From the NCBI GenBank assembly GCA_945872195.1, contig CAMBZO010000001.1:1-46668 (forward strand): DNA of 46,668 nucleotides, read 5' to 3'. Source of the DNA: Akkermansia muciniphila. GTDB lineage: Bacteria > Verrucomicrobiota > Verrucomicrobiia > Limisphaerales > SXTU01. Positions 15,843 through 37,801 of the stretch are shown here, piece after piece; positions within the stretch are counted from its first letter, which is position 1; each line of letters starts with the position of its first letter. The notes under the pieces are model-generated. The model did not search any database and had not been told where the DNA came from. It worked only from the letters and a program-made list of their open reading frames with translations. Made by a program: the position numbers and the translations under genes.

Positions 15843-15848
15843 ACTGCC

Positions 15849-17281: not shown

Positions 17282-17282
17282 G

Positions 17283-22321: not shown

Positions 22322-23259
22322 CCGCGCTCGCCCCAGAGCCCATCCCGCGCACCGCCGACCTCGCGGCGGAACTCCGCGCGCTGCTCACGCCCGCGACCGT
22401 GCTGCGGCGCGATGAACCACTTGCCAAGCGCACCACGCTGCGCGTCGGCGGGCCGGCGGAGATTTATGTTGAGCCGGCGAACGAGTCCGAGCTGGCGACC
22501 GTCCTGCGCTTCTGTCACGACCAAGATGTGCCGTTCTTCCTGCTCGGGCGCGGCTCGAACCTGCTCATCCGCAACGGCGGTATTCGCGGCGTGGTTATAC
22601 ACCTCGGCGCGCCTGCGTTCTCGGACATTAAAGTGGAGGGCGATCAGCTCCGCTGCGGCGCGGGCACAAGGCTGAAGGACATCGCTCTCACAGCGAAAAG
22701 CCACGGCCTCGGCGGCTTGGAGTTTCTCGCAGGCATCCCCGGCAACCTCGGCGGCGCGCTCCACATGAACGCGGGCGCGATGAACGCGTGGACCTTCGAG
22801 GCGGTCGAGACGCTTCGCTTCATGGACTACACTGGCGTCGCCCACGACCGCCCCGCGCGTGACGTGCCGACGACCTACCGGAGTTGCCCGTTGCTCAAGT
22901 CCGCCGTCGCCCTCGGCGCGGTGTTGAAGGGTTGTTCCACGCCGCGCGAGCAAATCGAGGCGAAGCTCGCCGAGTGTCAGAAGAAGCGCTGGACCTCGCA
23001 GCCCAAGGAGCCGAGCGCCGGCTGCATCTTCAAGAACACGAAGACCGTTCCCGCCGGTAAGCTCGTGGACGAACTTGGACTCAAGGGCACGCGTGTCGGT
23101 GACGCGGTCGTCTCGGTCGTCCATGGCAACTTCATCATCAACGCCGGCAAGGCCTCCGCGCGCGACGTGCTGGCGCTCATCGAAATCATCCGCACCACGG
23201 CGCGCGAGCAGCGCGGCATCGAGTTGGAGACGGAAGTGGAAATCGTCGGCGAGGATTGA
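22318..23259 (+). CDS. murB: UDP-N-acetylenolpyruvoylglucosamine reductase
   Basis: Carries LAKRTTLRVGGPAEIYVEP, LGRGSNLL, GCIFKNT and GNFIIN. Its ATG overlaps the murG TGA (ATGA). Confidence 0.9.
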   Translation: MTALAPEPIPRTADLAAELRALLTPATVLRRDEPLAKRTTLRVGGPAEIYVEPANESELATVLRFCHDQDVPFFLLGRGSNLLIRNGGIRGVVIHLGAPAFSDIKVEGDQLRCGAGTRLKDIALTAKSHGLGGLEFLAGIPGNLGGALHMNAGAMNAWTFEAVETLRFMDYTGVAHDRPARDVPTTYRSCPLLKSAVALGAVLKGCSTPREQIEAKLAECQKKRWTSQPKEPSAGCIFKNTKTVPAGKLVDELGLKGTRVGDAVVSVVHGNFIINAGKASARDVLALIEIIRTTAREQRGIELETEVEIVGED

Positions 23260-23262
23260 ATC

Positions 23263-24180
23263 ATGTCTCCTCCTCTCATCATCACCGTCATGCTCGGCGG
23301 CCCGTCTGCCGAGCGCGAAGTTTCGCTCCGCTCCGGTGCGGCGGTTGCGGCGGCATTGCGCTCGAACGGCCACACTGTTCACGAGCTTGATCCTGGCGGG
23401 CCGGGCCAGTGGGCGTTGCCTGCGGGCACGGAGGTCGTTTTTCTCGCGCTGCACGGCACTTACGGCGAGGACGGCACGGTGCAGCGCGCACTCGAAGCGA
23501 TGGGCGTGCCCTACACCGGCTGCGACCCGGAGGCCAGCCGACTCGCATTCGACAAGGTGCTTACCAAGCAGAAGTGCGTCGCGTGCGGTGTGCCGACGGC
23601 GAAATTCATGACCTTCAAATCAGCGGACGCGCAGTGGCCCGATGGCTGGGAGACCCCGGTGGTGATCAAGCCCGTGCGGCAGGGCAGCAGCGTCGGCTTG
23701 CAGTTCGTGGACTCGGCCGCGGAGTTTCCTGCGAAGCTCGCCGAGGCGCTAAAGTTCGACACGGAAGTGCTCATGGAAGAGCGCATCGTCGGACGCGAGA
23801 CGACGGTGGGCATCCTCGCGGGCCGCGCGTTGCCGGTCGTGGAGGTGCGCCCGAAGCAAGGCAGCTACGACTACGCGAACAAATACACTGCCGGCGCGAC
23901 GGAGTATTTCTGTCCGGCTGATTTTGACGCGATGACGACGGCCCGTATCCAGGAGGCGGCGCATGCGGCGTTCAGCTCAATCGGCGGACGCGATTATGCG
24001 CGCGTGGATGTGATGGTGCGAGCGAGCGGTGAGCCCGTGGTGCTCGAGGTGAACACCTTACCCGGCATGACCGAGACGAGCCTGCTGCCCAAAGCCGCCG
24101 CCGCCGCCGGGCTGAGTTACGCGGAGCTTTGCCAGATGATGGTGGACCTCGCGCTGCGGCGCGGGACGCAATCCAGATGA
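23263..24180 (+). CDS. ddl: D-alanine--D-alanine ligase
   Basis: Carries GGPSAEREVSLRSG, ALHGTYGEDGTVQ, KP...GSSVG and LEVNTLPGMT. Confidence 0.9.
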   Translation: MSPPLIITVMLGGPSAEREVSLRSGAAVAAALRSNGHTVHELDPGGPGQWALPAGTEVVFLALHGTYGEDGTVQRALEAMGVPYTGCDPEASRLAFDKVLTKQKCVACGVPTAKFMTFKSADAQWPDGWETPVVIKPVRQGSSVGLQFVDSAAEFPAKLAEALKFDTEVLMEERIVGRETTVGILAGRALPVVEVRPKQGSYDYANKYTAGATEYFCPADFDAMTTARIQEAAHAAFSSIGGRDYARVDVMVRASGEPVVLEVNTLPGMTETSLLPKAAAAAGLSYAELCQMMVDLALRRGTQSR

Positions 24181-24196
24181 GACAACTTTGACCGCC

Positions 24197-25174
24197 ATGT
24201 TCCGAAAACTAGCCCACCTCCTCAAAATCAACCGTCGTCTCCAGCGCGAGAACGAGAACGTGCTGCGCGTGAAGCTGCGCGCCGACCAACTCCGCGCCGA
24301 GCGCACGCGCTTCGCGATGCAGGTGCTCACGGTGCTCTTCGGAGCGGCGGTGGTGATCTTCCTCGGCTGGCGCGGGGTGGACTGGGCGGTGCGGGAGTTC
24401 GTCACGGAGAATCCGGCATTCGCGACGAAGAAGATTGATTTGCAGACCGATGGCGTGCTGACGGCGGAGGCGTTGCGCAAGTGGGGGCGAGTGCGGGTCG
24501 GCGAGAATCTGATGAGCCTCGACCTGTCGCTCATCAAGCGGGACCTCGAACTCGTGCCGCTCATCCAGTCCGCCGCCGTCGAGCGCGTGCTGCCGGACAC
24601 GCTCCGCATCCGGGTGACCGAGCGCGTGCCGGTGGCGCAGGTCGCCGTGGCGCGCCCGGACGCCAGCGGCCGTTACACGACGGTCATCCACCTGCTCGAT
24701 GCCACGGGCTTCGTGATGTTGCCGCCTGACCGCACGATGGTCGCGGACCCGACGGCGTTGCAAATGGACTGGCTGCCCGAACTGCGCGGTGTCAACGACG
24801 TGGACCTCAAGCTCGGCCGGCAGGTCGAGTCCGCGCAGGTCCGCTCCGCGCTCCGCCTGCTGGGGCGCTACGAGCGCTCGGTGATGTTCGGGCGCGCGGA
24901 CATCCGGCGCGTGGATGTGACGTCTGCGGAGATACTCACCGCGACAACCTCCGCCGGCAGCGAAATCACCTTCGCCTCGCAGCGGGATTTTGACACGCAG
25001 CTGCGCCGCTGGCGCGCGGTGCAGGACGTGTTCACACAGCGGGGCAAGGTGATCCGGACTTTCGATGTCTCCATCTCGGACTATCTGCCGACCGTGTTGG
25101 TGGACGCGAATGCTCTCCCCGCCCCGCCTGCCAAGCCTGTCAAACCTGCACCTTATCGGAGGAAAAATGCTTAA
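24197..25174 (+). CDS. ftsQ: cell division protein FtsQ (POTRA-containing)
   Basis: It lies between ddl and ftsA. It has one TM segment (VLTVLFGAAVVIFLGW) followed by a POTRA-like segment (IDLQTDGVLTAEAL...LIQSAAVERVLPDTLRIRVTER). ATG at 24197 was chosen over the TTG at 24188. Confidence 0.75.
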   Translation: MFRKLAHLLKINRRLQRENENVLRVKLRADQLRAERTRFAMQVLTVLFGAAVVIFLGWRGVDWAVREFVTENPAFATKKIDLQTDGVLTAEALRKWGRVRVGENLMSLDLSLIKRDLELVPLIQSAAVERVLPDTLRIRVTERVPVAQVAVARPDASGRYTTVIHLLDATGFVMLPPDRTMVADPTALQMDWLPELRGVNDVDLKLGRQVESAQVRSALRLLGRYERSVMFGRADIRRVDVTSAEILTATTSAGSEITFASQRDFDTQLRRWRAVQDVFTQRGKVIRTFDVSISDYLPTVLVDANALPAPPAKPVKPAPYRRKNA

Positions 25175-26396
25175 CCTCTTCTTTCCCAAAAAAACCACCG
25201 TCATCGTCGGCCTCGAGATCGGCACCGCGAAGGTCGCCGCCGTCGTGGGCGAAGTCACCGATGGCGGTGGCGTGAACGTCATCGGCATCGGCCAGTGTCC
25301 CTCGCGCGGCGTGCGCAAGGGCGAGGTGGTCAACGCCGAGCACGCCGCCGAGGACGTGCGCAACGCGATTGTCGAGGCGGAGAAATCTGCCGACGTGGAA
25401 ATCGCCAGCGTGTATCTGGGCGTCACCGGCGGACACCTCACGAGCCTCAACACACACGGCGTCTTCACCTCGGTGTCGTTGGATCACGAAATTTCCCAGC
25501 AGGACGTGAACGAGGTGCTGGCGAACGCCAAGGTTTTCAACCGCCCTTCGGAGAACTACGTGCTGCACTCCGTCCGCCAGCATTTCACAGTGAATGGGCA
25601 GGCCGGCATCGTGGACCCGATTGGGATGCTCGGGGAGAATCTGGAAGTGGACATGCACGTCATCCACGGGGTCACGACGCGGCTGCAGAATCACATGCGG
25701 GTCGTCGCGGGGCTGAACTTGGAAGTCGAGCAGACGGTCTTCAGCGGCCTCTGCTCGGCGCTCGCGCTGCTGGACAACGAGCAGAAGCACATCGGCGCGC
25801 TGGTGGTGGACATCGGCGCAGGCACGACGGAATACGTGATCTATGCCGAGGGCGTCATCAAGCACACGGGCGTCATCGCGGTGGGCGGCGATCACGTGAC
25901 GAATGACCTGTCGTATGGCTTGCGCATGGCTCCGGCGCGCGCGGCGTTGCTCATGCGCGAGCACGGCGCGGCGACGCTCGATGGCGTGGCAGACCAGACG
26001 CTCACGCTCACGAGCGAGAATGGCTTTCCCGACCGGCGCGTGGATTTGCATGACCTGCGGCGAATCATGGTCGCGCGGCTGGAAGAGACGTTTCAGCTCA
26101 TTGATAGCGAGATTGGCGAGCTGGGTTTTCACGACCAACTCCGCGCGGGGGTGTGCCTCTGCGGTGGTGGCGCACGCATCCGGGGAATTGAGAAGCTCGC
26201 GGGGAATGTCTTCGGCCTGCCTGCGACGCTGGGTCGTGCGAACGCCGTTGGCGGTCTGCGGTCTGCGTCCGATGATCCGGAACTCGCCACCGCTGTCGGT
26301 CTGGTGAAATACGGTGCGATGCGCCAGAAGGGCAATCAGAGCACCGGCCTGGTCGGCAAAATCAAGGGGTTCGCCGGCTCACTGGGATTATTTTGA
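25167..26396 (+). CDS. ftsA: cell division protein FtsA
   Basis: Actin-like ATPase motifs are present: VGLEIGTAKV, VVDIGAGTTE and LCGGGARIRG. GGAGGA lies upstream of the ATG at 25167, and the ORF overlaps the ftsQ stop. Confidence 0.9.
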   Translation: MLNLFFPKKTTVIVGLEIGTAKVAAVVGEVTDGGGVNVIGIGQCPSRGVRKGEVVNAEHAAEDVRNAIVEAEKSADVEIASVYLGVTGGHLTSLNTHGVFTSVSLDHEISQQDVNEVLANAKVFNRPSENYVLHSVRQHFTVNGQAGIVDPIGMLGENLEVDMHVIHGVTTRLQNHMRVVAGLNLEVEQTVFSGLCSALALLDNEQKHIGALVVDIGAGTTEYVIYAEGVIKHTGVIAVGGDHVTNDLSYGLRMAPARAALLMREHGAATLDGVADQTLTLTSENGFPDRRVDLHDLRRIMVARLEETFQLIDSEIGELGFHDQLRAGVCLCGGGARIRGIEKLAGNVFGLPATLGRANAVGGLRSASDDPELATAVGLVKYGAMRQKGNQSTGLVGKIKGFAGSLGLF

Positions 26397-26429
26397 TTCA
26401 CTTGTCGGCAACTCAACCCGCCATCTGCC

Positions 26430-27767
26430 ATGACATCGACTGAAACCAACTCCACTGTGGCTCCGGTCAGGAAGCAGCTCACCATCAAAGTCTTTGGCGT
26501 CGGCGGCTGCGGCGGCAACGTCGTGTCGCAGATTCACCGGATGGGCTTTGGTGGGGTGCAGATGATTGTGCTGAACACGGATTCGCAGGCCCTCGCGCAG
26601 TGCCCGCTGCCCTACAAGTTCAATCTCGGCCTCACCTTGAACGGCGGTCTCGGCGCGGGAGGCGACCCGGAGCGCGGTCGCGCGGCGGCGCAGGAGGACG
26701 AGGCGCGGTTGCGCGAGCTTTGCACCGGGGCGGACATGGTCTTCATCTGCGCGGGACTGGGCGGCGGCACCGGCACGGGAGCGGGTCCGGTGCTGGCGCG
26801 CGTGGCGAAGGAGTGCGGCGCGCTGGCGCTGGCGTTCGTCACGCTGCCGTTCGACTGCGAGGGGGCGAGGCGGATGCGGCAGGCGCGGCTTGGCTTGGAA
26901 GAATTCAAGGCCGCTGCCGACGGCGTCATCTGCCTGCCGAACCAAAAAGTCTTCAAGCTGATTGACGAGAACACCAGCGTCATCGAGACCTTCACTACGA
27001 CGAACGAGCTGCTGGCGCAGGGCGTGCGCGGCATCTGGCAGCTTGTGACGCGGCCGGGCTTCATCAATCTCGATTTCGCCGACCTCTGCGCGGTGGTGCG
27101 CGACCGGCATTCCGAGAGTTCCTTCGCCAACGCCGAGGCGGTGGGGCCGCACCGTGCGAAGGAAGTGGTGGAGAAGCTGTTTGCCAACCCGCTGCTCGAC
27201 GGCGGCGCTGCGCTGGGCGAGGCCGACGCGCTGCTCGTGAGCCTCATGGGCGGCCCGAGCCTCACCATGGCCGAGGTCAATCGCGTGATGGATCAGATCA
27301 ACCGGCAGTGCGAGAACGCGCACCTCATTATGGGCGCGGCGATCGAGGAAGCGCTGGGAGACCGGCTGACGGTGACGCTCGTCGCGTCCCGCCGGCCTTC
27401 GCACGCCGCTGACTTGCCGCAAGCTGCGGACGTGGAGAAGGCGGAGCCAGCACCGGCCGCGCGTGGCGGTTCCGACTTCGACACCCTCGGCTCCGCCATG
27501 GTGGCGAAGCCCGTTGCCCGCCGCGCCGCCGCCTCGCCTGCGCTGGAGAAAGTCGCCGTGGCCGTGGCTGAATCCGATGCGGTCGGGGCGGCTCCTGTCG
27601 TCGCGACGCGGACATGGCGGTCCCGCAAGAAGGCCAAGGCCGTGCATCCCGAGCTGGGCTTGGAGACGGTGACGACCGGTCCCTTCCAGCACAGCGAGCC
27701 CACGCGCCACAACGGAGTGAACCTCGACGTGCCGACGTTCGTGCGGCGTGGGATGCCGATGAATTAG
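26430..27767 (+). CDS. ftsZ: cell division GTPase FtsZ
   Basis: Carries VFGVGGCGGN and the tubulin signature GLGGGTGTGAGP, followed by a long Ala/Pro linker and the conserved C-terminal peptide DVPTFVRRG. Confidence 0.95.
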   Translation: MTSTETNSTVAPVRKQLTIKVFGVGGCGGNVVSQIHRMGFGGVQMIVLNTDSQALAQCPLPYKFNLGLTLNGGLGAGGDPERGRAAAQEDEARLRELCTGADMVFICAGLGGGTGTGAGPVLARVAKECGALALAFVTLPFDCEGARRMRQARLGLEEFKAAADGVICLPNQKVFKLIDENTSVIETFTTTNELLAQGVRGIWQLVTRPGFINLDFADLCAVVRDRHSESSFANAEAVGPHRAKEVVEKLFANPLLDGGAALGEADALLVSLMGGPSLTMAEVNRVMDQINRQCENAHLIMGAAIEEALGDRLTVTLVASRRPSHAADLPQAADVEKAEPAPAARGGSDFDTLGSAMVAKPVARRAAASPALEKVAVAVAESDAVGAAPVVATRTWRSRKKAKAVHPELGLETVTTGPFQHSEPTRHNGVNLDVPTFVRRGMPMN

Positions 27768-27792: not shown

Positions 27793-29058
27793 CTACTCAA
27801 CGCGCAAGATGCGGTAGAAGCGGGCTGCGGCAGCGGGCGAGGAGTCTGTCTGCGAGGCGGACCGTTCGGTGGTGGTGATGACAGAAGTGAGGTTTTGCCA
27901 AGAGGAGATTATGGTGTCCTTGAACTGCACTTGGTAGGCGAGGCCGATGACTGCCTCCCATGAGATGACGCGGGCGCCGCCGCTCGGCGCGACACCGACG
28001 GCGAAAGGCGCGAGCAGCTCCCGCACGGTCTGGTTGTAGGTGTCCGCGACGACGAGGTGTCCGCGCGCAGCGATGGCGAGGCCATAGGGATTGAAGAAGC
28101 GGGCGAGCCCGTTCGCGCCGTCCGCCCCGCCTTCCCCCCCCACGAGACCAGCGATAGTGCTGACGCGCCCGTCCGGCGCGAGGCGGCGGATGGTGTGGTG
28201 CGCGGCGTCGGCGATGTAGAGGGTGCCGTTCGGGGCGAGCGCGAGTTCGGCGGGTTTGCCGAAGCGGGCGGATGCGGCCGGGCCGTCGGCAGAACCGTCT
28301 TGGCCAGCGACTCCGGCAAGGGTGGTGACGACGCCGGCGGCGGTCACGCGGCGGAGGGTGAAGTTGTTGGCGTCCGAGACGAAGAGCGAACCGTCCGGCG
28401 CGAGCGCGAGGCCGACAGGGTTGTTAAAAAAGGCGTTCGTCCCGGTGCCGTCGGCGGAACCGAACGTCTCCGGGTTGCCCGCGAGAACAGACACGGTCCC
28501 GTTCGTGGCGATGACGCGAATGAGATGATTGCCGCTGTCAGCGACAAAGACCGTGCCGTCGGCGGCAACGGCGAGGCCGAGCGGTTGGTTGAAACGCGCG
28601 GCGGAGGTGGAGCCGTCGGCGTAGTCGGCGTTGCCAGCGAAACCGGCGAGGGTGGTGACGCCGCCGTTCGCGGTGACTCGGCGAACGGTGTGGTTGCCGG
28701 TGTCGGAGACGTAGATCGCGCCGTCGGGGCCGAGCGCGAGGCCGGTGGGGCTATCGAAGCGCGCGATGGTCCTGGAGCCGTCCGCAGAGCCGGGCGTGCC
28801 GGGCAACCCGGCGAGCGTGGTCACGACGCCGTTCGTGGCGATGCGGCGGATGGCGTGGTTTTGGTTGTCCGCTACGAAGATGGTGCCGTCAGCGGCGATG
28901 GCGATGCCGGCAGGGTCTTTGAAGCGGGCGGTGATGTTAGTGCCGTCGGCGGAGCCGGGAGTTTCCGGCAGGCCGGCCAGCGTGCGGACGGAGTCTTGGG
29001 CTTGGAGGGACCCGACAAGGCAGGCGAGCAGAATCAAGAGCACGGGCAGGCAATCCAT
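27793..29058 (-). CDS. secreted NHL-repeat beta-propeller protein
   Basis: A signal peptide (MDCLPVLLILLACLVGSLQA) is followed by about six repeats of the form GSADG..ARF..P.G.A...DG..(F/Y)V(A/S)D..NH.IRR. Start moved from 29217 to the ATG at 29058. Confidence 0.85.
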   Translation of the reverse strand: MDCLPVLLILLACLVGSLQAQDSVRTLAGLPETPGSADGTNITARFKDPAGIAIAADGTIFVADNQNHAIRRIATNGVVTTLAGLPGTPGSADGSRTIARFDSPTGLALGPDGAIYVSDTGNHTVRRVTANGGVTTLAGFAGNADYADGSTSAARFNQPLGLAVAADGTVFVADSGNHLIRVIATNGTVSVLAGNPETFGSADGTGTNAFFNNPVGLALAPDGSLFVSDANNFTLRRVTAAGVVTTLAGVAGQDGSADGPAASARFGKPAELALAPNGTLYIADAAHHTIRRLAPDGRVSTIAGLVGGEGGADGANGLARFFNPYGLAIAARGHLVVADTYNQTVRELLAPFAVGVAPSGGARVISWEAVIGLAYQVQFKDTIISSWQNLTSVITTTERSASQTDSSPAAAARFYRILRVE

Positions 29059-29065
29059 GGGTGGC

Positions 29066-29190
29066 ACCCGCGTCCCGCGGGTCGTTTTCTGCGTCGCGCA
29101 GAAAACACGGGCGGCGGAGTCCGAGCGCGCTAGGATGCTCGCACGCCGAGAATTCGGCGAGACGCCGAATTCGACCCGCCGGAGGCGGGT
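29066..29190 (-). promoter_or_regulatory. array of four perfect triloop hairpins in the cytochrome-NHL spacer
   Basis: The four are 29066-29082 (acccgcg tcc cgcgggt), 29084-29106 (gttttctgcg tcg cgcagaaaac), 29150-29172 (gaattcggcg aga cgccgaattc) and 29174-29190 (acccgcc gga ggcgggt). Confidence 0.6.
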
Positions 29191-29237
29191 GCTACCCAGT
29201 TGTGCCGTCGTGCTCACGCGCTTGGTTCTCGTCTGGT

Positions 29238-32200
29238 TCAGTTGCCGCGGCGGACGAGGCGGTCGTTGCTCGGGCGCGCAGGTTGCGCTTCTGGTTCGGC
29301 CTTGAAGGCGCTCGGCTGCTTTAGTTTCGCACCGGAGGCGGTTTGCAGTTCACCGTTCTTCACCGCGACTTCCTCGACCTTGTAGAGCGGGCCGGTGCGT
29401 TTGGATTTTAAGTCGCTGGGCGTGGGACCGGCGAAGTGGCGGAAGAACTTCTCCATCTCGTCCATCGTGAAGGGACGCGAGCCGCGGCGGCCGAAGACGA
29501 CGGTCTGGTTGCCGGTCTCGTCCACCACGCGGTCGCGGTCGAGGCCGCGCGAGACAGCGACGGCGGGGCCGTGCGTGGGGTAGGTGGCGATGAGCTTCGG
29601 GCTGGGCGCGGGGCTGAAGCCCATGTGCGTGGGAACGTTCTCGGGCGAAATCATCTGAAGCACGCGCAGGCCGTTCTTGCCGTCGGCGACCAGCGCGAAC
29701 ATCGAGGCGTTCACGGAGCCGATTTGGACGGAGCGCGTATCGTTGAGTTTGCCGTCGGCGTTGAACATGCGTTCGAGGCGCGGCTTCTCGGGGTTGCTGA
29801 TGTCAATGAACGCGAGGCCCTCCGCGCCGTTCGCGACGTAGGCGAACGTGCGCGCGTGGTAGAAGCGCTGGGCGTTCTTGAGGGGCACGGTCGCGCCGGG
29901 GATGAGGCGGGGCTTCGTCGGGTCGGAGATGTCCACGACCTTGAAGCCGTCGTCGTCGGTCACGTAAGCGTAGCGGAACTGCACGCTGACGGCGCGCGGG
30001 TTCTTGAACTCGCCGTTGCTCAACTCGGCCACGAGCTTCGGCGCTTCGAGCTTGTCGTTGTGCAAGCCGAGGACGAAGAGACCTTTCTTCGCGACGACGA
30101 ACAGGTTTGTGCCGGCCATGAAAGAGTGCATCGCGCCGGCGAGCTTGCCGTCGGGGTTGAAGCGGATGGTCTTGAGGTCTTTGTCGAGGAAGTTGTTGTT
30201 CGGGTTGCCGTCCACGAGCGTCGCGACGGTCGTCATCACGAGGCCCTCCTCGCGGTCGGTGATGAAGGCCCATGCGTAGATGAGGCTGATGGGCTGCTCC
30301 TCGTTTTCCGGTAGGCGCTGGCGCGTCGGGTCAATGCCCAACGTGCTCGGCAGCGTGACGCTGGTAGCATACTTGGTGCGGATGTAAGTGCGCTGGCCCA
30401 GCGGCGAAACGGGCGCGGTGACGATGCGCTCGCTAAAACCTTTCTGGTCGATGTTCGCGACGTCGAAGACCTCGAAGCCGTCCGCGCCGTTCGCGGTGTA
30501 GAGGTATTCGCCACGCAGCGTAAGGTCCAAAATCTCCTTCGCGTGGTGGTGATGGGCGAGGTCGTTGCCGTCCTGCTTCTCGGGCAAGACGCCTTTGTTC
30601 GCCTCGACGTGGCGTTTGAAATTGTCCGGGTAAGCGAGGCGATGAAGGTGGCTGCCGATGGCGGCCTGCGGCTCTTCCTGCTCCGTCCAAACGACGCCGT
30701 AGAGGCCGTCCTTGCCCGCGCCGACCCAAGCGTAGCGACCGAAGAAGTTAACCGTGCCCGTGCCGAAGCCGAGCAGGGAAGTCATCCACGCGTTGTTGCT
30801 GTTGTCGGCGGCGAGGTGGCAGTCGGTGCAGCCCTTCGTCGTGCCGACGCCGCTGGTCGTGTGTGGGAAGTGCGGGTTGTAAGCCTGGCCGCTGTAGCCC
30901 TCGGCGCTCACGGTCTGCTGCTGCGAATAGACCCACTCGCGGTTGCTGTTCTGCGACCCGACGATGACCGCGCTGGAGGAACGCAGCACAGCGACGCGGT
31001 TGCTCTTGTAGCTCGCGTCCACGCCGAGTTGGAAGACGTCGTCGCGGACGACCTGCGGGTTGTAGCCGGTGAAGTTGCGCGTGGTCATGCCCTCGAACTT
31101 GTTCAGCGGCACGCGCTGGTTCGCGCGCATCGGCAGGTGGCAGCCGAAGCAGCTCGTCGCCCACGACGAGTGGCAAACTTGGCAGGTGAGGTTCGAGTTG
31201 TCGTGCGCGAGAGCCTGCGCGCACTTCGCGGCCTCCGGCACGTCGCCCCAAGTCTGGCCGTCGCGGCGCAGTGTCTTCGCGTAGCGGGCCTTCGCGTTGT
31301 AGCGGGAATGCTGCGGGTCAATCGTGTCCAGCGTCTGCGGGATTTCCCAGCGCACGTCCGGCGAGAGGTTGCTGCGCTGGAAGAGCCGCTTGCCTTCCCA
31401 CACAAAGCGCGGGCCCCAAGGTGTGCTGCTGGCGGCGATGTTCACGCCCTTGCCGCCGTTGCTGAAGCGCCCGCCGTTGCCGCTCGTGACGAGCGACGGG
31501 CGCGCGTTTACCGTGCCGTGGCAGTCGATGCACTCGACCGAAGTCGCGGCTCGCGGTTCGCCGTAGAGATTGCCGTCGCCGTGCGAGTCGGTGAGGAAAT
31601 GGCAGTCGGCGCAGTGCATGCCCTTCGCGAGGTGAATGTCCTTCAAGTGAACCGCCTTCTCGAACTTGTGCGCGTCGTCGTGCGGAATCTTCTGGTCGTC
31701 GAGCGTGAGCAGGTTGCCGGACTTGTCTTTCTTGAACACCGCGCGGAAGACCCAGCCGTGGCCGTGGTAGTCGGCGAACTGCGTGTGCTTCATGCGCGGG
31801 TTCAGCTCGGCGACCTTCTCGAGGAAGTCGAGGTCGCCCCACAAACCGCGCGCGGCGGCGGCCTCGGGATTCTTCGCGATGGCGTGCGTGAGCTGCTCCT
31901 CGGTGGGGTTGCGCTGCTTCTGAAATTCCTCCGGCTTGCGGTTGCCGAGGAAGTGCTTGTCGTTCGCGAGCGGGTTGCCGGGGTGCGGATACATGAGCTC
32001 GCCGTCGCTCTCCTGGTCCCACCACGTGTAGCCCAGGAACGGGTTCACGAAGAGGTTCCCTTGGTGCATGTGGCAGTTCATGCACTGGCTCGACGGGATG
32101 CTGCGGGTGAACTCGTGCTTGATGGGATGGCCGCGCTCGTCCTTGCGAATCGCGGAGTCGCCAGTGAAGGAAAGGCCCTGATGGCCATACTTGGAATACC

Positions 32201-33419
32201 AGCCGGAGTTCACGGGCGAGCGGTCGTTTGCGTAGATCACATGGCAGGCGGTGCAGCCGGAGGAGCGGTAGTCGCCGGGATGATTGTTGCTGCCCATGAA
32301 GTCGAGCAACGGGTCGTGCAGGCGCGTCTTCTGCAAGTTGAGATAGACCGGGTCAATGCGGTTCAAGGTGCCGAGGCCGCGCTCGCTGAGGCGGCGGAGC
32401 GGCTTGCCAGGCGGTTCGACGGCGTTCGGGATGCCGAGCTGGTTCTGCTTCTCGCCGCCCTTCTCGAAGATGCGAAGGATGTTGCTCGGCTGGCCGATGG
32501 CGAAGCGCGGGAGCGGGTCGAGGTAGGGCAAGACGCCGTAACGCTTCGTGTCCTCGGGCGTGACGGGCGTGGGGTTCACGAGGCGAACGGCGGTGCCGTC
32601 GGCGGCGTGGGCTTGGCCGTAGAGCGGGTTCTTCTGCGGGATGGCGCCGTTGTTGTAGAGCGCCGCGCCCCAAAGCATCGCACCGTGGCGCATCATCGAG
32701 TGGCCGACGCTCGCGACCTCCTGCTTGTGGCAGGTGCCGCACGCCTTGTCCGCGACACGCAGGTCGCCGGGGTTCACGAACTGGATGAACTCGGGCGACT
32801 CCTGGTTGAGCAGGATGGTGGAGTTGTTTGGGTTCGCGGAGCCGGGCCACCACTCGGCGTGACGCGGGGCGACGTGGGCCTTGCGCATGAGCAGGCCGGG
32901 CGTGGCGTTGCCGCCGTGGCAATCCGTGCAGCCCAGCACTACGTTGGGCGACTTGTGCATCGTGTGCTCGTCGGTGCCGCCGTGGCATTCGAGGCAGCCG
33001 CGTGACTTGCGCGACGCGTCTTCGCGGGATTGGTCAATCAGGTTCGGGGCCGGGAGCTGGCGGGCGGTGTCGCGCGGCAAATCGATTGGGACAGAAATCG
33101 CGGGGCCGAAAGCCGGCGAAGCTCCAAGGTCCAAGCTCCAAATCCCAAAGAAGCTCCAAGCTCCAAGCACCAAGGCAAGGGCGCGCGCTGCCGTAGCGTC
33201 CGACAGCACGCCTTCTCCCTTCCTCGGAAGAGGGGAAAAGGTGGCCGCAGGCCGGATGAGGGGTGGGGCCACCAACGCTGACGCACACAACCCCTCACCC
33301 CGGCCCTCTCCCCTCATCCGATGAAGGGAGAGGGAGTCGAAGTGCGCCGGCGCAACGACGGCTCCGATGGCGCTTGGCCATTGGAGCTTTTTTTGGAGCT
33401 TGGAGCTTGGAGTTTTCAT
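29238..33419 (-). CDS. decaheme c-type cytochrome fused to a C-terminal LVIVD-type beta-propeller (start uncertain: ATG 33419 or GTG 33209)
   Basis: Ten CXXCH motifs are present: CLECH, CTDCH, CGTCH, CTACH, CMNCH, CADCH, CIDCH, CQVCH, CFGCH, CTDCH. The C-terminus has repeats such as LYTANGADGFEVFDV, AYVTDDDGFKVVDISDP, AYVANGAEGLAFIDISNP and ALVADGKNGLRVLQM. The first 70-100 codons are translated repeat elements. Confidence 0.85.
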   Translation of the reverse strand: MKTPSSKLQKKLQWPSAIGAVVAPAHFDSLSLHRMRGEGRGEGLCASALVAPPLIRPAATFSPLPRKGEGVLSDATAARALALVLGAWSFFGIWSLDLGASPAFGPAISVPIDLPRDTARQLPAPNLIDQSREDASRKSRGCLECHGGTDEHTMHKSPNVVLGCTDCHGGNATPGLLMRKAHVAPRHAEWWPGSANPNNSTILLNQESPEFIQFVNPGDLRVADKACGTCHKQEVASVGHSMMRHGAMLWGAALYNNGAIPQKNPLYGQAHAADGTAVRLVNPTPVTPEDTKRYGVLPYLDPLPRFAIGQPSNILRIFEKGGEKQNQLGIPNAVEPPGKPLRRLSERGLGTLNRIDPVYLNLQKTRLHDPLLDFMGSNNHPGDYRSSGCTACHVIYANDRSPVNSGWYSKYGHQGLSFTGDSAIRKDERGHPIKHEFTRSIPSSQCMNCHMHQGNLFVNPFLGYTWWDQESDGELMYPHPGNPLANDKHFLGNRKPEEFQKQRNPTEEQLTHAIAKNPEAAAARGLWGDLDFLEKVAELNPRMKHTQFADYHGHGWVFRAVFKKDKSGNLLTLDDQKIPHDDAHKFEKAVHLKDIHLAKGMHCADCHFLTDSHGDGNLYGEPRAATSVECIDCHGTVNARPSLVTSGNGGRFSNGGKGVNIAASSTPWGPRFVWEGKRLFQRSNLSPDVRWEIPQTLDTIDPQHSRYNAKARYAKTLRRDGQTWGDVPEAAKCAQALAHDNSNLTCQVCHSSWATSCFGCHLPMRANQRVPLNKFEGMTTRNFTGYNPQVVRDDVFQLGVDASYKSNRVAVLRSSSAVIVGSQNSNREWVYSQQQTVSAEGYSGQAYNPHFPHTTSGVGTTKGCTDCHLAADNSNNAWMTSLLGFGTGTVNFFGRYAWVGAGKDGLYGVVWTEQEEPQAAIGSHLHRLAYPDNFKRHVEANKGVLPEKQDGNDLAHHHHAKEILDLTLRGEYLYTANGADGFEVFDVANIDQKGFSERIVTAPVSPLGQRTYIRTKYATSVTLPSTLGIDPTRQRLPENEEQPISLIYAWAFITDREEGLVMTTVATLVDGNPNNNFLDKDLKTIRFNPDGKLAGAMHSFMAGTNLFVVAKKGLFVLGLHNDKLEAPKLVAELSNGEFKNPRAVSVQFRYAYVTDDDGFKVVDISDPTKPRLIPGATVPLKNAQRFYHARTFAYVANGAEGLAFIDISNPEKPRLERMFNADGKLNDTRSVQIGSVNASMFALVADGKNGLRVLQMISPENVPTHMGFSPAPSPKLIATYPTHGPAVAVSRGLDRDRVVDETGNQTVVFGRRGSRPFTMDEMEKFFRHFAGPTPSDLKSKRTGPLYKVEEVAVKNGELQTASGAKLKQPSAFKAEPEAQPARPSNDRLVRRGN
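33119..33413. repeat. composite palindromic repeat element at the barrel-cytochrome junction
   Basis: A CTCCAAG-type tandem block (33119-33177) and its inverted counterpart (33374-33413) flank a nested palindrome (33212-33333). Within the palindrome, CGGATGAGGGG (33253-63) pairs with CCCCTCATCCG (33310-20). Confidence 0.75.
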
Positions 33420-33423
33420 GTCC

Positions 33424-36111
33424 TCAGTAAGTAAGGGTCAACGCAATCAATCCGCTGTAGAGAAAGTCATCCACCTTGCCGGCGCGCGAGGTCTCTTCGA
33501 GGCCGGGCACGGGGTCGGTGCTGCGACGGTAAATGTCCTTGTAGCCGCGACCCGGCAGCAGCACGCCCCAGCCGGCGGAGAGAATCACATTGTCGGTCAA
33601 GAAGGGCCGATACTGGAGGCCGAGGCTCAGGTCGAGGCCCAGCTCGCGGTCAATCTTATCCGTCAGCAACGCTGTGCGCAGCGGGTCTGTCTCGGCGAAC
33701 CGGATGTAGTTCAAGTTCACGAACGCCTTGAGCTTGGGGGTCACGTCCATATCCGTGCCGAGGCCCCAGAGGTAGATGCCGGGGTTCACGAAGTTCGCCT
33801 GGCCCTGCGCTTTGCTCGTCCGCAAGTTCGGCACGAGCGAGCCGCCCTGCTTCAATCCCACCGCCGTCCCACCGAAGTTAAATCCCTGCCGCACGTAGTA
33901 GCTGAATGGCCCACCGACGAAGTTCGGGTTGTCGAGAATCGTGTCGAAGCCCGTCGCCTTGCCGTCATCGGCCTTGCTGTCGCCGCTCGCGTAAACGAAG
34001 GAGGCTTTGTAGCGCACCCAGTCGCGGTCGTAGCTCAGTTCCAGCGCGGCGAACTGCGCGTTGATGTTCACCGGTTGGCCTGCGAGGCCGTTGAAGTCGT
34101 CGCGTCCAAACGCGTGATAGAACTGGTGCGAGACATTCCAGCGTCCGATGTGGCCGTCGCCGCCGAAGCCGAGGTAGTAGGCACGCACGTCGTGCGGGCG
34201 CACCGTGCCGATGGGCGTGGGCCTGACGATGCCGCCGTTGCGGTCGTAGTGGATGTCGGCGTCGTCGAGGTTCGCGTGGAAGCTCCACGTCGTGGTGTAG
34301 CCCTTGAAGAAGGTATCCTGCAAATAGGCGTTCGCGATGACCACTCGCTGGTTGCGCTGCTCGAAGGTGTTCAGGCCCGAGTTCGTGTCCTTCTCGCGCA
34401 TGTCGAACACCGCCGCGTTGTATTGCAGCCGGTTGTTCGCGTAGTTGCCGAAGATCCGCCCGCCGAGGTTCGTGTCGTTGAAGAGGAAGCCGCGGAAGTC
34501 GGAGTTGAACGTCTGGTTGCCGCCCTTGAGAGCGATAAAGTCGTAGCTGTCCGTGAGGTCGCGCAGGTGCAGCTCGATGAAGGCTTCCTGCAACGCCCAG
34601 TAGTCCTTCGTGCGAACCGTCGAGCGGCGGCCGGCGAGGCTGTCGGCGGACGTGAGTTGCCCCGCGAGCAGCGTGTTGATGTCAGCGGGGTTCGTGACGA
34701 AGGCGTTGCTGGGATTGGCGAAGTTGTTCCCCGGTCCGCCACCGAGGAAGCCGCGCGGGTCGGGCGAGACGCCGCCGGTTTCCTGCACGTGGAGGTAGTT
34801 GATGTTGTAAACCGGCGTGAGCTTGATGGCCCACTCGACGGGCTTGAACACCGTCTCGCCACGAAACAACTCCACCGCGAACGCCATGTTGTTCTGCACC
34901 GACAACGCCTCGCCGCGACCGAAGAACTCGTATTGTCCCGGCTTGGCCGCGCTCGCGCCGCTGGGCGTTGGGACGACTTGGCCGCTGAAGTCCGTCGAGT
35001 TGTTGACCGTGACGTTGAGGAAAATGTCCTGGCCGATGACGGGCAAATCGCCCTTGAGCACGCTCTGGTAATACGGATGCCACAGGCGCGGCTCGTGGTA
35101 GTAGAAGGGGTCTTCGCCGCTGCCGTTGGCGTAGCGCTTCCACGGCAGGAAGCCTGTGCGCCAGCGGTCATTTGCCGACTCGGTGTTCGGCGGCAGTGCC
35201 ACGCCGGTGTCGCGCGCGATGCCGCTGCTCTCGAAGTGCGGGTGGAAGGGGAGATTGCGCCGGGTGTTCGCGCGCGGGAGGTCCAGCTCGCGGGGGAGTT
35301 TGTCCAAGCCATACTTCGCCTTCGACTCCGCCGTCTGTGGCTCCACCGTGAGCGTGCGAATGGCTGCGCGCGGCAGAGTGAACGCCACTGGCTCGGACCC
35401 AAACCCACTCGGCGCACGCGGGGGCACGGCGACGACCTCGGTGTCGCGAAGTAGCACACGCGGCAACGCCAGCGGCGCAGGCACCGGCTCCGACCCAAAC
35501 GGAGGGCCGAGCGTGAACTCGGGTTTGAAGAACGGCTCCTCGATGGGTTTGGAGTTCTTCACGCCGGGGTCGGGATTGAATTGAGGTGGGGTTTTTGGCG
35601 CGGGTTGCACGGTGCGCGTGACTTTGAGCTGCAGGCCCGAGGCTTCTCCCACGAACGAGAACGGCGCAGTCGGCCCGGTGCGCGGGTCGGGCGTGAACTT
35701 GTCCGGCACCGCCGGTGGCGTCCCGCTGCTCAACGTGACGCGCGGGACGAAGGTGGCCTCGATGGCCGGGAAGAGCAGCGACGCCGGGAACGGTAGAAAA
35801 TTCTTGTCCGGCTCCGGGCTGAAGATGCTGGGCGCGAGGGGCGGCGGGCCGGAGGTGGTTTCCTGGAGTGGCTTGAGCCGATCGCGCACGCGCTCGGCGT
35901 CTTCCTTCGGCGAGAGGACTGGGGACGAAGCAGGGCTGACTGCGGACTTGGATTTTGCCGGGCGGTTCGTCAGGAGAGCGCCCGGCTTGACCGGCTCCGC
36001 GGCGTGGCCGGGCGCACATGCGAGACCCACCGCGACGTAGGGCGCGGCGGACCGAAGCAGGCCGCGCAATCGCGGGAATTTATGGCCCTGAAACGACAGT
36101 GGCATCTGCAT
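33424..36111 (-). CDS. outer-membrane beta-barrel protein (alginate-export/AlgE-like barrel, from memory) with a Pro-rich N-terminal extension of about 300 aa
   Basis: There is a signal-like N-terminus after the ATG at 36111 (MQMPLSF...AVGLACAPGHAAEP). The C-terminal ~550 aa are Gly/Asn/Tyr-rich with amphipathic strands, contain the motif YASGDSKADDGKATGFD, and end in an aromatic residue (LTLTY). The track ORF extends to 36714, antisense to the neighbouring gene. Confidence 0.7.
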   Translation of the reverse strand: MQMPLSFQGHKFPRLRGLLRSAAPYVAVGLACAPGHAAEPVKPGALLTNRPAKSKSAVSPASSPVLSPKEDAERVRDRLKPLQETTSGPPPLAPSIFSPEPDKNFLPFPASLLFPAIEATFVPRVTLSSGTPPAVPDKFTPDPRTGPTAPFSFVGEASGLQLKVTRTVQPAPKTPPQFNPDPGVKNSKPIEEPFFKPEFTLGPPFGSEPVPAPLALPRVLLRDTEVVAVPPRAPSGFGSEPVAFTLPRAAIRTLTVEPQTAESKAKYGLDKLPRELDLPRANTRRNLPFHPHFESSGIARDTGVALPPNTESANDRWRTGFLPWKRYANGSGEDPFYYHEPRLWHPYYQSVLKGDLPVIGQDIFLNVTVNNSTDFSGQVVPTPSGASAAKPGQYEFFGRGEALSVQNNMAFAVELFRGETVFKPVEWAIKLTPVYNINYLHVQETGGVSPDPRGFLGGGPGNNFANPSNAFVTNPADINTLLAGQLTSADSLAGRRSTVRTKDYWALQEAFIELHLRDLTDSYDFIALKGGNQTFNSDFRGFLFNDTNLGGRIFGNYANNRLQYNAAVFDMREKDTNSGLNTFEQRNQRVVIANAYLQDTFFKGYTTTWSFHANLDDADIHYDRNGGIVRPTPIGTVRPHDVRAYYLGFGGDGHIGRWNVSHQFYHAFGRDDFNGLAGQPVNINAQFAALELSYDRDWVRYKASFVYASGDSKADDGKATGFDTILDNPNFVGGPFSYYVRQGFNFGGTAVGLKQGGSLVPNLRTSKAQGQANFVNPGIYLWGLGTDMDVTPKLKAFVNLNYIRFAETDPLRTALLTDKIDRELGLDLSLGLQYRPFLTDNVILSAGWGVLLPGRGYKDIYRRSTDPVPGLEETSRAGKVDDFLYSGLIALTLTY

Positions 36112-36181
36112 CAATGAGAGGCGTTCCACCAAACGAAAAGCAAGCTCGCGCGTGTAAGCGAAGTGTAAAACTTTCGTCAAT

Positions 36182-37801
36182 TTGCTTGCCGCTCGGCGCA
36201 GGTTTTTCCACAACTGGTGGCGTTTGAAGTCCGCCCTGTTCATCCTTGGCCTTCTGCTGTCTGTCCTGCCCGTGCGCGCGCAGATGACGGTGGCGGATGT
36301 GACCACGGTGCTGGCCCAGGCGGTTTCGCGCGCGGCGGTCGTCTCGCCCGCGAGCGTGGTCGCGGTGGTGGACCGCGAAGGATTCGTGCTCGGCGTGTGG
36401 AGCGTGAACGGCCTCGCGCCGTCGGCGGACAACCTCGCCAACGCCATCGCCAAGGCGGGCACGGCGGCGTTCCTCAGCAGCGGGCAGAACGCCTTCACCA
36501 CGCGCACGGCGGCGATGATCGTGCAGCAGAACTTCCCGCCCGGCGTGAACAAGCGCCCGCCCGGCCCGCTGGTGGGCGTGAACTTCTCGCAGCTCTCCTT
36601 CTCTGACATCAACAAATTCAAGCTGCCTGCCGCCGCGCCGCTCGCGTTCAACGCGACGCCGGGCGCGACGGTGACGCCGATTGCCACTCCCCTCACCGGT
36701 GGCCTCGCCGGCACGGCGGGCGGCGTGCCGCTCTACATTGCTGGAGTGCTGGTTGGCGGCGTGGGCGTCGCGGGCGATGGCGACGACAGCCCGCTCAACA
36801 TCTCTGCCTCCACGGTCATCAGCTCGAAAGTGGACGAAGATGTTGCGCTCGCGGGACAAGTCGGCTTCGGGCCTGCCTCCCGGATTCTTGCGTCGAAGGT
36901 GTTCATTGACGGCATCGCGCTGCCCTACGTGGCGAGCACGACAGCGCTCGGCGTCGTGACGCCGCTGGGCGGCATCGGCGCGGTGGTGGCCGGCTTCGCA
37001 CCGGCGGCGAGTCCCGCCGCGCCGTTGCCCTACGTGGCCACGACGATGGGGGGTGTGACCGGCCAGATACGCCAACCCATCACCGCCGATCTCAGCCCGG
37101 TCCCGCTGCCGGGTGGAACGGTGCGGCTCACGGCGGCGGAGGTCACAGCCATCCTCACCGCTGGCGCGAACCGCGCCCGCACCACGCGCGCGGGCATCCG
37201 CCTGCCGCGCGGCGTGCCGATGCAGTGTTTTATTTCCGTGGTGAGCAATCCGAACTCCGCTGGCACCGCGCCCGTCGTGCTCGGCACGTTCTGCACCTCG
37301 CCGGACACGACGCGGTTCAGTTGGGATGTGTGCGTTCAAAAAGCGCGCACGGCGATTTTCTTCAGCACGGACACTCGGGCGTTCACGGCGCGCACCGTGG
37401 GCTTCATGGCGCAAGGCACTTTCCCCCCCGGCATCGGCGGGACGACTCCCGGCATCTTCCTCGGGCTGCAAGAACGCTTCTCCATCATCACCGTCCCGGC
37501 GATCGCGGCCGTCAACACGCTCAATGGCGCGGCCTTCACGACCTCCATCGCGGTGAACCCGAACCTGCCGAACGGCATGACCGTCTTCGCCGGCTCCATG
37601 CCGCTGTATCGCGGCGGCGTGCTCATCGGCGCGGTGGGCGTGAGCGGCGATGGCATCGATCAGGACGACCTCGTGGCCGCGTCGGCAGCGGCGGCGTTGG
37701 GTGGAATCTTCCTGCCGCCGGAAACAGTCCGAGCCGATCGCAGCCTCCATCGCGGGGCACGTCTGCCGATGGTGAAGTTCCCACGCAACCCGGCGCTGTA
37801 G
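36182..37801 (+). CDS. secreted protein with two tandem DUF336 (GlcG/HbpS-like, putative heme-binding) domains
   Basis: Two copies of the family pattern are present: AIAKAGTAAFLSS...GGVPLYIAGVLVGGVGVAGDGDD and VQKARTAIFFST...GSMPLYRGGVLIGAVGVSGDGIDQDD. A signal-like stretch KSALFILGLLLSVLPVRAQ precedes them. Only TTG starts are available (36182 or 36224). Confidence 0.7.
   Translation: MLAARRRFFHNWWRLKSALFILGLLLSVLPVRAQMTVADVTTVLAQAVSRAAVVSPASVVAVVDREGFVLGVWSVNGLAPSADNLANAIAKAGTAAFLSSGQNAFTTRTAAMIVQQNFPPGVNKRPPGPLVGVNFSQLSFSDINKFKLPAAAPLAFNATPGATVTPIATPLTGGLAGTAGGVPLYIAGVLVGGVGVAGDGDDSPLNISASTVISSKVDEDVALAGQVGFGPASRILASKVFIDGIALPYVASTTALGVVTPLGGIGAVVAGFAPAASPAAPLPYVATTMGGVTGQIRQPITADLSPVPLPGGTVRLTAAEVTAILTAGANRARTTRAGIRLPRGVPMQCFISVVSNPNSAGTAPVVLGTFCTSPDTTRFSWDVCVQKARTAIFFSTDTRAFTARTVGFMAQGTFPPGIGGTTPGIFLGLQERFSIITVPAIAAVNTLNGAAFTTSIAVNPNLPNGMTVFAGSMPLYRGGVLIGAVGVSGDGIDQDDLVAASAAAALGGIFLPPETVRADRSLHRGARLPMVKFPRNPAL

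Follow-up and report, generated by a model that had tools for sequence, protein, structure and literature searches.

An earlier note on a 46,668-nucleotide stretch of DNA (contig CAMBZO010000001.1 of assembly GCA_945872195.1, deposited as Akkermansia muciniphila and placed by GTDB in the Limisphaerales of the Verrucomicrobiota; here the window) singled out three co-directional genes and a divergent fourth as a candidate envelope redox system, and an open reading frame (ORF) check of the window found all four ORFs where that note had put them. Along the minus strand, in the order of transcription, lie the genes for an outer-membrane barrel protein (33424..36111, 895 amino acids (aa)), a decaheme c-type cytochrome with an LVIVD propeller (29238..33209, 1323 aa from its likely GTG start) and a secreted NHL-repeat beta-propeller (27793..29058, 421 aa). 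Across a divergent intergenic region of 70 bp (36112..36181), the plus strand encodes a secreted tandem HbpS-like (DUF336) protein of 539 aa (36182..37801). The analysis reported here indicates that the cluster belongs to a real, widespread and uncharacterised envelope redox module, most likely a periplasmic reductase served by a channel and not a classic porin-cytochrome wire.

The decaheme cytochrome-propeller

The maximal ORF of the cytochrome gene (29238..33419, minus strand) has 1393 codons, and its heme-binding region (30816..32996, ORF residues 142-868) spreads ten hemes over about 730 residues. CXXCH motifs begin at ORF residues 142, 164, 227, 389, 446, 603, 630, 746, 757 and 864, exactly the ten widely spaced sites that the earlier note had counted, and CX3CH, CX4CH and CXXCK motifs are absent from the ORF. 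All ten are invariant in the 62 of 62 full-length homologues compared, three Acidobacteriota included, which settles the question of whether orthologues conserve them. Across phyla, 33% of the heme-domain columns are invariant, among them 13 His outside the motifs and 5 Met. The homologues have Sec-type N-termini with no lipobox; with conserved CXXCH motifs and predicted export, the protein has the marks of a multiheme c-type cytochrome as far as sequence can tell. At about 73 residues per heme it is not of the MtrA/DmsE type, which is compact (~300-350 aa) and recognized by TIGR03508, a model that it does not match.

The C-terminal part of the protein (29550..30545, approximately ORF residues 959-1290) is an LVIVD-repeat beta-propeller by score as well as by fold, in agreement with what had been read from the sequence before. 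PF08309 matches it at E=1e-15 (57.2 bits against a Pfam cutoff of 20.2), and the AlphaFold2 model, built from an alignment of 65 sequences, has confident all-beta blades with predicted local distance difference test (pLDDT) values of 80-95. Foldseek searches with the model returned generic propellers only. No His or Cys is invariant in the propeller columns, where the conserved residues include many Asp and Glu. Sequence and profile searches of the PDB with the cytochrome gave nothing significant; the best similarities, to heme pairs of octaheme nitrite reductase and NrfB (E~0.05-0.1, with octaheme nitrite reductase best at E~0.05), are marginal, and sub-fragments of the cytochrome matched no enzyme-type heme family of Pfam at E<=10.

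The family is large. A collection with one genome per species holds at least 595 confirmed matches, counted among the 600 stretches that the homologue search listed; more than 7,900 protein clusters match closely, all of them unnamed, and an exhaustive HMMER search with the heme domain returned 545 clusters at E<=1e-30. Full-length members, which include Planctomycetota and Candidatus Xenobia, are 1,090-1,700 aa long, and the architecture is therefore stable across the family. Identity between orders is 60-75%, and the carriers include Chthoniobacterales/Udaeobacter, Limisphaerales/Pedosphaera, Opitutales, Blastocatellia and Bryobacteraceae. The source records call each member 'hypothetical protein', and no characterized orthologue came to light. 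A family of this size and constraint, in bacteria that are among the most abundant but least understood of soil and freshwater, is annotated throughout as hypothetical.

The outer-membrane barrel

The first gene of the cluster encodes a protein with a Sec-type N-terminus (MQMPLSFQGHKFPRLRGLLRSAAPYVAVGLACAPGHA/AEP), a Pro-rich region at residues ~40-350 that is predicted to be periplasmic (17% Pro, three F-x-P-[DE]-P motifs), a conserved segment at ~270-360 and an 18-strand barrel at ~360-895 that ends in ...ALTLTY. The signal sequence, Pro-rich region, barrel and aromatic C-terminus of the earlier note are all accounted for. In the AlphaFold2 model, which was built from an alignment of 69 homologues, the N-terminal ~350 residues are disordered and residues ~360-895 form 18 long strands with pLDDT mostly 85-97. 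Loop lengths alternate between long and short, with the long ones at odd positions, as in canonical outer-membrane proteins.

The modelled fold is AlgE-like. The best 16 Foldseek matches in the PDB are all AlgE (E 1.6e-16 to 3e-15), with target-normalised template-modelling (TM) scores of 0.61-0.69 over the AlgE matches; OccD and OccK follow at E~1e-9, and the top 50 contain AlgE, Occ and general porins, MtrB not being among them. The call of an AlgE-like barrel in place of MtrB therefore held (E=1.6e-16, TM-score 0.65-0.69). In sequence, the barrel has no Pfam, NCBIfam or PDB sequence or profile match, permissive thresholds included: neither half matches Alginate_exp (PF13372) in Pfam at E<=10, and MtrB_PioB finds no match in Pfam or NCBIfam even at E<=10. 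The protein is accordingly of the AlgE type in its 18-strand fold, not in Alginate_exp membership or in a polysaccharide-synthesis context, and it has neither the MtrB_PioB sequence nor the ~26 strands of an MtrB/PioB-type porin. Of the domain profiles that the earlier note had named for this cluster, LVIVD and NHL match and Alginate_exp does not. No barrel homologue contains a CXXCH motif.

Dense blocks of invariant residues occur at two places in the homologue alignment, the periplasmic segment ~270-360 and loop 7, a conserved loop of 70 residues (709-778) between strands 13 and 14. From the conservation of loop 7 and by analogy with loops 3 and 7 of OprD/Occ channels, which fold inward, we infer that the barrel is a gated, substrate-specific channel and not an MtrB-type sheath. 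An 18-strand AlgE-like barrel is, as modelled, too narrow for an MtrA-type wire.

Conservation of the cluster

Neighborhoods were compared in 80 loci (given L numbers below) with flanks of up to 10 kb, and the neighboring ORFs of relatives were grouped by de novo clustering. Counts refer to the loci with sufficient flanking DNA, which are 63 for the barrel (at least 2.5 kb upstream of the cytochrome), 53 for DUF336 (at least 4.5 kb upstream), 61 informative loci for NHL and 32 with complete 10-kb flanks for the electron-input genes described below. The barrel is present in 62/63 loci, and in 59/63 it immediately precedes the cytochrome and shares its strand, an arrangement that is for this reason far beyond chance. 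DUF336 accompanies them in 46/53. Synteny of the core genes reaches across the orders of Verrucomicrobiota and into Acidobacteriota, where all three stand on one strand with small gaps or overlaps, in the order barrel, cytochrome, DUF336 in L074 and in the order DUF336, barrel, cytochrome in L077, whose junctions overlap (one by 1 nt). The gap between barrel and cytochrome is 2 nt in L009. Between relatives that are 97% identical, flanks differ while the four genes stay together. The neighborhood is conserved in the way that the earlier note had expected, and the genes are supported as a functional unit whose core is barrel, cytochrome and DUF336, with NHL as an accessory. Soil and freshwater species that keep the three core genes side by side number at least several dozen and probably hundreds.

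Some loci depart from this layout. In rare exceptions to the close spacing, about 4 kb separates barrel and cytochrome in L016 and L043, and L010 has no barrel within 5.6 kb upstream of the cytochrome; the former may reflect an insertion between the genes and the latter a relocated or paralogous cytochrome copy. In the Blastocatellaceae locus L074, the N-terminus of the barrel protein (L074:1815-3965) is a CarboxypepD_reg domain in place of the Pro-rich region, and ~3 kb past the 3' end of the DUF336 gene lie genes for two more multiheme cytochromes (L074:13569-15609), one of them with an MtrC/MtrF domain II/IV-like match.

The divergent gene proved to be a core part, where the earlier note had seen a secreted tandem DUF336 gene sharing a 70-bp control region with the barrel. 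Its product has a signal peptide and two stretches that match PF03928 (62.9 bits against a cutoff of 25), a family whose members Pfam annotates as heme-binding or heme-degrading. The 70-bp region contains no sigma-70-like, FNR, CRP or Fur consensus, no consistent FNR, CRP or Fur site appears in 48 divergent intergenic regions, and the promoter and terminator scan was uninformative.

The NHL protein has a signal peptide (MDCLPVLLILLACLVGSLQA) and six NHL repeats (Pfam PF01436, E=9e-43, 142.6 bits). A secreted NHL propeller behind a 179-bp hairpin spacer is what had been described, and both are there; as a core part it did not hold up. An NHL gene follows the cytochrome in 15/61 loci, all of them Verrucomicrobiota, and in none of the three Acidobacteriota loci, and is a clade-specific accessory.

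Electron-input genes in relatives

In many relatives, the cluster adjoins a set of genes that looks like a split NOX-like electron exporter (for example L009:214-5740, L036:1942-7575 and L003:1-5927). The set encodes an FNR-like flavoprotein that combines FAD, NAD(P)H and 2Fe-2S domains with a pair of membrane helices at its N-terminus; a cytoplasmic protein with domains that bind cyclic nucleotide monophosphates (cNMP) and a HydN/DmsB-like poly-[4Fe-4S] domain; a five-helix membrane protein of ~280 aa with two HX13H pairs on two helices; and a second cytochrome of ~540 aa, which has one membrane helix, ten invariant CXXCH motifs and, on the cytoplasmic side, a Cys-rich N-terminus. It often includes a c554-like triheme protein. 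Across 19 sequences that share 21-51% identity, the membrane protein keeps all four His (H79/H93 and H252/H266), and His pairs of this spacing hold the two stacked b hemes of cytochrome b and NOX/FRE. For the second decaheme, the match to TIGR03508 stays below threshold (20.9 bits, where the cutoff is 192; E=2e-4).

Of the 32 loci, 17 have the four-His membrane protein together with the second decaheme, and 16 have the cNMP-Fer4 protein. The set directly abuts the core cluster in L009, and in IMCC26134 (L036) the genes for the FNR-like protein, cNMP-Fer4 protein, four-His membrane protein, decaheme, barrel and decaheme-propeller follow one another on one strand. In 10 other loci of the 32, a CysJ-like NADPH flavoprotein is encoded directly downstream of the cytochrome. 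A CHASE2 cyclase occasionally neighbors the cluster.

This CysJ-like FAD/NADPH flavoprotein is present in 15 loci altogether, L025 and L063 among them (for example L063:14003-15412), mostly of Chthoniobacterales and in loci that do not have the b-heme/decaheme module. It lacks an FMN domain and scores 451 bits to the NCBIfam 'sulfite reductase subunit alpha'. We considered it as an alternative electron donor; the link may be simple inherited synteny.

Comparison with known systems

MtrCAB, MtoAB and PioAB of Shewanella, Sideroxydans and Rhodopseudomonas share with the present cluster an outer-membrane barrel gene beside a gene for a ten-heme c-type cytochrome, further multiheme cytochromes nearby (here in relatives) and the handling of electrons beyond the inner membrane. 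No component of the cluster, however, is homologous to MtrA, MtrB, MtrC or Pcc proteins. The barrel is 18-stranded and AlgE-like, without sequence similarity to the 26-strand MtrB type; MtrA is wire-like and ~330 aa long, whereas the cytochrome here has ~1,300 aa, with a fused propeller and ~73 residues per heme. An outer cytochrome of the lipoprotein kind is missing, and the input would apparently be NAD(P)H via a di-heme-b protein (in relatives) and not quinol via CymA. With AlgE and the OprD/Occ channels of Pseudomonas, the barrel shares 18 strands, long extracellular loops and a long loop 7. It differs in having no Alginate_exp match and no alginate or polysaccharide genes nearby, in its ~350-residue Pro-rich extension, predicted to be periplasmic (CarboxypepD_reg in Blastocatellaceae), and in being always paired with a cytochrome.

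Secreted NHL propeller proteins stand beside multiheme cytochromes in outer-membrane cytochrome clusters, namely DFE_448-451 and DFE_461-465 of Desulfovibrio ferrophilus and the uet cluster of Candidatus Tenderia, and a role in stabilising cytochrome complexes has been proposed for them (PMC5815863; bioRxiv 10.1101/2022.05.06.490989). In the present cluster, by contrast, the cytochrome polypeptide has a propeller of its own, of the LVIVD type, most lineages do without NHL, and the companions are an AlgE-like barrel and DUF336; no sequence relationship between the cytochromes was detected.

Within the phylum, He et al. (2017, mSphere) proposed putative porin-multiheme clusters in freshwater Verrucomicrobia, with homologues in IMCC26134 and Candidatus Udaeobacter (PMC5615132). 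Their porin has at least 20 strands, the periplasmic cytochrome has eight conserved heme sites, and the clusters were seen in anoxic bog genomes only (PMC5615132). The two descriptions, which may yet concern one and the same system, have in common the phylum and a porin beside multiheme cytochromes; by description the present cluster differs in that both cytochromes have ten invariant sites, the barrel is modelled with 18 strands and the family is widespread in oxic soils. IMCC26134 (L036) and a metagenome-assembled genome (MAG) of Candidatus Udaeobacter sp. (L041) carry the cluster described here. Fe(III) respiration, with unspecified porin-associated multiheme loci, was reported for Limisphaera in 2026 (PMC13608581). 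Neither study (PMC5615132, PMC13608581) describes the barrel/decaheme-propeller/DUF336 architecture. The earlier note had held a conduit to be new for this kind of organism, which is true of the present architecture as far as these studies go and not of putative porin-multiheme systems in Verrucomicrobia as such. No published account of an LVIVD-cytochrome fusion, or of a unit made up of DUF336, cytochrome and barrel, came up in the literature searches, which also covered decahemes with beta-propellers.

As in NOX/FRE and the cytochrome b of bc1 complexes, the electron-input genes of relatives pair an NAD(P)H-FAD protein with a membrane protein that carries two HX13H pairs. In relatives the parts are, however, split into separate polypeptides with extra 2Fe-2S, 4Fe-4S and cNMP-binding modules, Ferric_reduct of Pfam has no match, and the putative acceptor is a periplasmic decaheme chain and not O2 or Fe(III) directly.

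Proposed function and alternatives

Our preferred explanation, in which we have somewhat better than even confidence, is that the cluster forms the outer part of an extracytoplasmic electron-transfer system: a dedicated channel would serve a terminal reductase in the periplasm. The delivery of electrons outside the cytoplasm would then probably follow a route that is so far uncharacterised. The decaheme-propeller, predicted to be Sec-exported and not lipidated, would for that reason most likely reside in the periplasm and act as the terminal oxidoreductase. The barrel, as the conservation of loop 7 and of the periplasmic segment suggests, would admit or release the substrate or dock the enzyme, and would be unlikely to sheathe a heme wire. 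The tandem DUF336 protein would be the obligatory third component, possibly handling cofactor, heme or iron, and the NHL propeller an optional scaffold in one set of Verrucomicrobiota lineages. Of the two roles that the earlier note had offered, a periplasmic or surface oxidoreductase fits best; a conduit in the style of MtrAB or Pcc is disfavored by the 18 strands, the conserved 70-residue loop 7 and the missing MtrB-like match in sequence or fold.

In relatives, the path would start from cytoplasmic NAD(P)H and run through the membrane-anchored FAD/[2Fe-2S] flavoprotein to the cNMP-binding poly-[4Fe-4S] protein, cross the inner membrane through two putative b hemes of the four-His protein, and continue by way of the inner-membrane-anchored ten-heme cytochrome and the decaheme-propeller to the substrate. 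Such a path would be reductive and would dissipate rather than build membrane potential; this, together with the cNMP-binding domain and the occasional CHASE2 cyclase, suggests a regulated, non-respiratory reduction. An Fe(III) chelate or iron bound to humic matter, reduced so that the cell can acquire it, is our leading guess for the substrate; another oxidised anionic compound would be a further candidate. More tentative, and in our estimate possible but not probable, is the fuller proposal of an unrecognised electron-export chain, powered by NAD(P)H and gated by cyclic nucleotides, that would lead from a split NOX-like flavoprotein through a di-heme-b membrane protein to ~20 c hemes and have the triad as its outer end. 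If this is true, the chain would cross the entire envelope of common aerobic Verrucomicrobiota, Acidobacteriota and Planctomycetota of soil and freshwater, all Gram-negative, and would serve regulated reduction outside respiration, for example to acquire iron reductively, to reduce humics or to produce reactive oxygen in a controlled way. An export of electrons from NAD(P)H would make the system the bacterial equivalent of NOX/FRE in eukaryotes, extended across two membranes, and would bear on how aerobic heterotrophs reduce iron, humic matter and oxygen outside the cell. IMCC26134 is a culturable carrier, which makes the system directly testable.

Several observations weigh against a channel-served reductase fed from NAD(P)H. 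AlphaFold2 failed on the heme domain (pLDDT ~20-60, mean 49), and the conserved His and Met are numerous enough to give every heme six ligands, which is the state found in pure electron carriers. That loop 7 folds into the lumen follows from strand parity and the analogy with OprD and not from coordinates, and a highly conserved extracellular loop could instead dock a surface-exposed partner. The inner-membrane module is absent from the window (tblastn) and from 5/32 fully flanked loci; the four-His protein matches nothing in Pfam (Ferric_reduct included), NCBIfam or PDB sequences, and the link to NAD(P)H is drawn from gene association in relatives.

A true porin-cytochrome conduit of the MtrCAB/Pcc kind would place part of a multiheme cytochrome inside the barrel and carry electrons across the outer membrane to insoluble Fe(III), Mn(IV) or humics; the barrel would hold either the decaheme-propeller or the smaller decaheme of relatives, with the propellers at the cell surface. 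We regard this as unlikely, even though barrel and multiheme cytochrome are almost universally adjacent, the order of small decaheme, barrel and large decaheme in L019, L029 and L036 resembles that of periplasmic cytochrome, porin and outer cytochrome, and conservation in the barrel is highest in an extracellular loop. The ~73 residues per heme found here are also close to the heme density of MtrC and other surface decahemes. LVIVD repeats are typical of cell-surface proteins (Pfam; bioRxiv 10.1101/2022.05.06.490989), and Fe(III) respiration is known from Limisphaerales isolates with porin-associated multiheme loci (PMC13608581). Against these stand the missing lipobox of the cytochrome, the predicted inner-membrane anchor of the smaller decaheme, the frequency of the family in aerobic soil lineages (Chthoniobacterales, Udaeobacter) and an electron source that is apparently NAD(P)H instead of quinol and conserves no energy. 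The barrel argues the same way: MtrB needs 26 strands to hold MtrA, and an 18-strand AlgE/Occ-like barrel has no MtrB_PioB match by sequence or fold. The adjacency could, on the other hand, be due to descent only. The barrel would then export polysaccharide or serve as a general porin, and the periplasmic cytochrome beside it would have nothing to do with it. AlgE-like folds are familiar chiefly from the export of exopolysaccharides, and one phylum supplies most of the loci. Synteny across phyla speaks strongly against mere adjacency, and we consider this explanation highly improbable: adjacency persists in at least two phyla with gene order and strand rearranged (L074, L077) and while flanks change between 97%-identical genomes, junctions are short or overlapping (a 2-nt gap in L009, a 1-nt overlap in L077), and no polysaccharide synthesis genes are conserved nearby.

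Two further explanations concern what the cytochrome would do. The decaheme-propeller could oxidise a periplasmic or imported reduced substrate, such as Fe(II), Mn(II) or a reduced sulfur or nitrogen compound, and send electrons inward to the respiratory chain. Propellers and hemes do combine in enzymes for small substrates, such as cd1 nitrite reductase, hydrazine synthase and quinohemoprotein dehydrogenases; the weak local likeness to heme pairs of octaheme nitrite reductase and NrfB (E~0.05-0.1) and a window that has no NAD(P)H module fit such a role. It is nonetheless quite unlikely, as the module of relatives couples to NAD(P)H flavoproteins and cytoplasmic ferredoxin domains, inward flow would oppose the membrane potential, no oxidase or quinone-reductase genes are conserved nearby in the compared loci, and the propeller offers no invariant His or Cys for a catalytic metal or cofactor. 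Heme or iron acquisition, in which the HbpS-like protein binds, the barrel imports and the cytochrome reduces or processes, as in a reductive iron-uptake device, overlaps with the channel-served reductase as one candidate substrate of it. In its favor, HbpS-like proteins are annotated as heme-binding or heme-degrading (PF03928), DUF336 is a core component, and a FecR gene adjoins the cluster in one relative; eukaryotes reduce Fe(III) for uptake by NOX/FRE-like logic. As the main purpose of the cluster it is nevertheless improbable, with no Fur box in the divergent promoters and no TonB-dependent receptor, FeoB or siderophore genes conserved nearby, and at least 20 c hemes would be a large investment for iron scavenging.

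Hairpin elements and the cytochrome start

The earlier note had described a 1393-aa cytochrome starting four nucleotides downstream of the barrel gene. The ORF is there, with its ATG 4 nt after the barrel stop; the protein is likely shorter, and the spacing applies to an inflated ORF, since the cytochrome start probably lies further in. Between barrel and cytochrome sits a nested-hairpin insertion of ~300 nt (33119..33415, minus strand; predicted free energy -186 kcal/mol, z -7.5 by RNA folding), with heptamer repeats of the AGCTCCA type as its outer arms (inverted repeats I14 and I18). This insertion makes up the first ~70-95 codons of the 1393-codon ORF. It is present in L003 and L055 and absent from L001, where the cytochrome is 97% identical, has an ordinary signal peptide and starts 6 nt after the barrel gene. 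Alignments with homologues do not begin before ORF residue ~100. On these grounds the 1393-aa ORF was rejected as the true protein. A GTG at 33209, preceded by GGAAGGGAGAAGG, is the likely start from sequence context. With this start, the signal peptide apparently takes its hydrophobic core from the 3' arm of the hairpin, co-opted as coding sequence.

The spacer between cytochrome and NHL genes (29059..29237, minus strand) consists of 179 bp of stacked hairpins (free energy -110 kcal/mol, z -5.2) and is the window's most structured 150-nt stretch and strongest outlier in a sliding-window fold scan; in L009 only 16 bp separate the two genes. Rfam found two tRNAs in the window and no match for the hairpin elements. 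Both hairpin blocks look like lineage-specific insertions and not conserved parts of the system.

Heptamer repeats of the forms AGTTGAA and AGTTGAG, with the complement AACTCAA, recur elsewhere in the window (3963-3998, 6861-6967, 7191-7230, 21795-21837, 41763-41812 and 43263-43288; families D2, D5 and D7). These arrays appear to lie at gene boundaries, a placement not checked against gene coordinates, and may, with the hairpin of the cluster, represent a single family of hairpin elements with repeat arms. An inverted repeat at 41691-41853, with 36-nt arms of 89% complementarity set 91 nt apart, is a structure outlier in the fold scan, and a perfect 22-nt hairpin lies at 42163-42232.

Other features of the window

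A near-complete dcw (division and cell-wall) cluster (10447-27767, plus strand) converges on the 3' end of the NHL gene. It encodes an FtsI-like penicillin-binding protein, three Mur ligases, FtsW, MurG and Ddl, and the three ORFs that follow were read from their translations, without a Pfam scan, as FtsQ, FtsA and FtsZ. An FtsZ gene fits an origin in Verrucomicrobiota better than one in planctomycetes. Close relatives do not share this adjacency to the redox cluster, L055 and L001 being without it. Public MAG records that carry the redox cluster and are clearly verrucomicrobial (L003, L004, L005, L029, L053-L055 and L079) are titled Klebsiella, Proteobacteria or Akkermansia muciniphila, which look like taxonomic mislabels. 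Two paralogues of GDP-mannose 4,6-dehydratase lie in tandem at 3981-5108 and 5160-6143, and a 98-nt stretch near their 5' ends is 81% identical as DNA.

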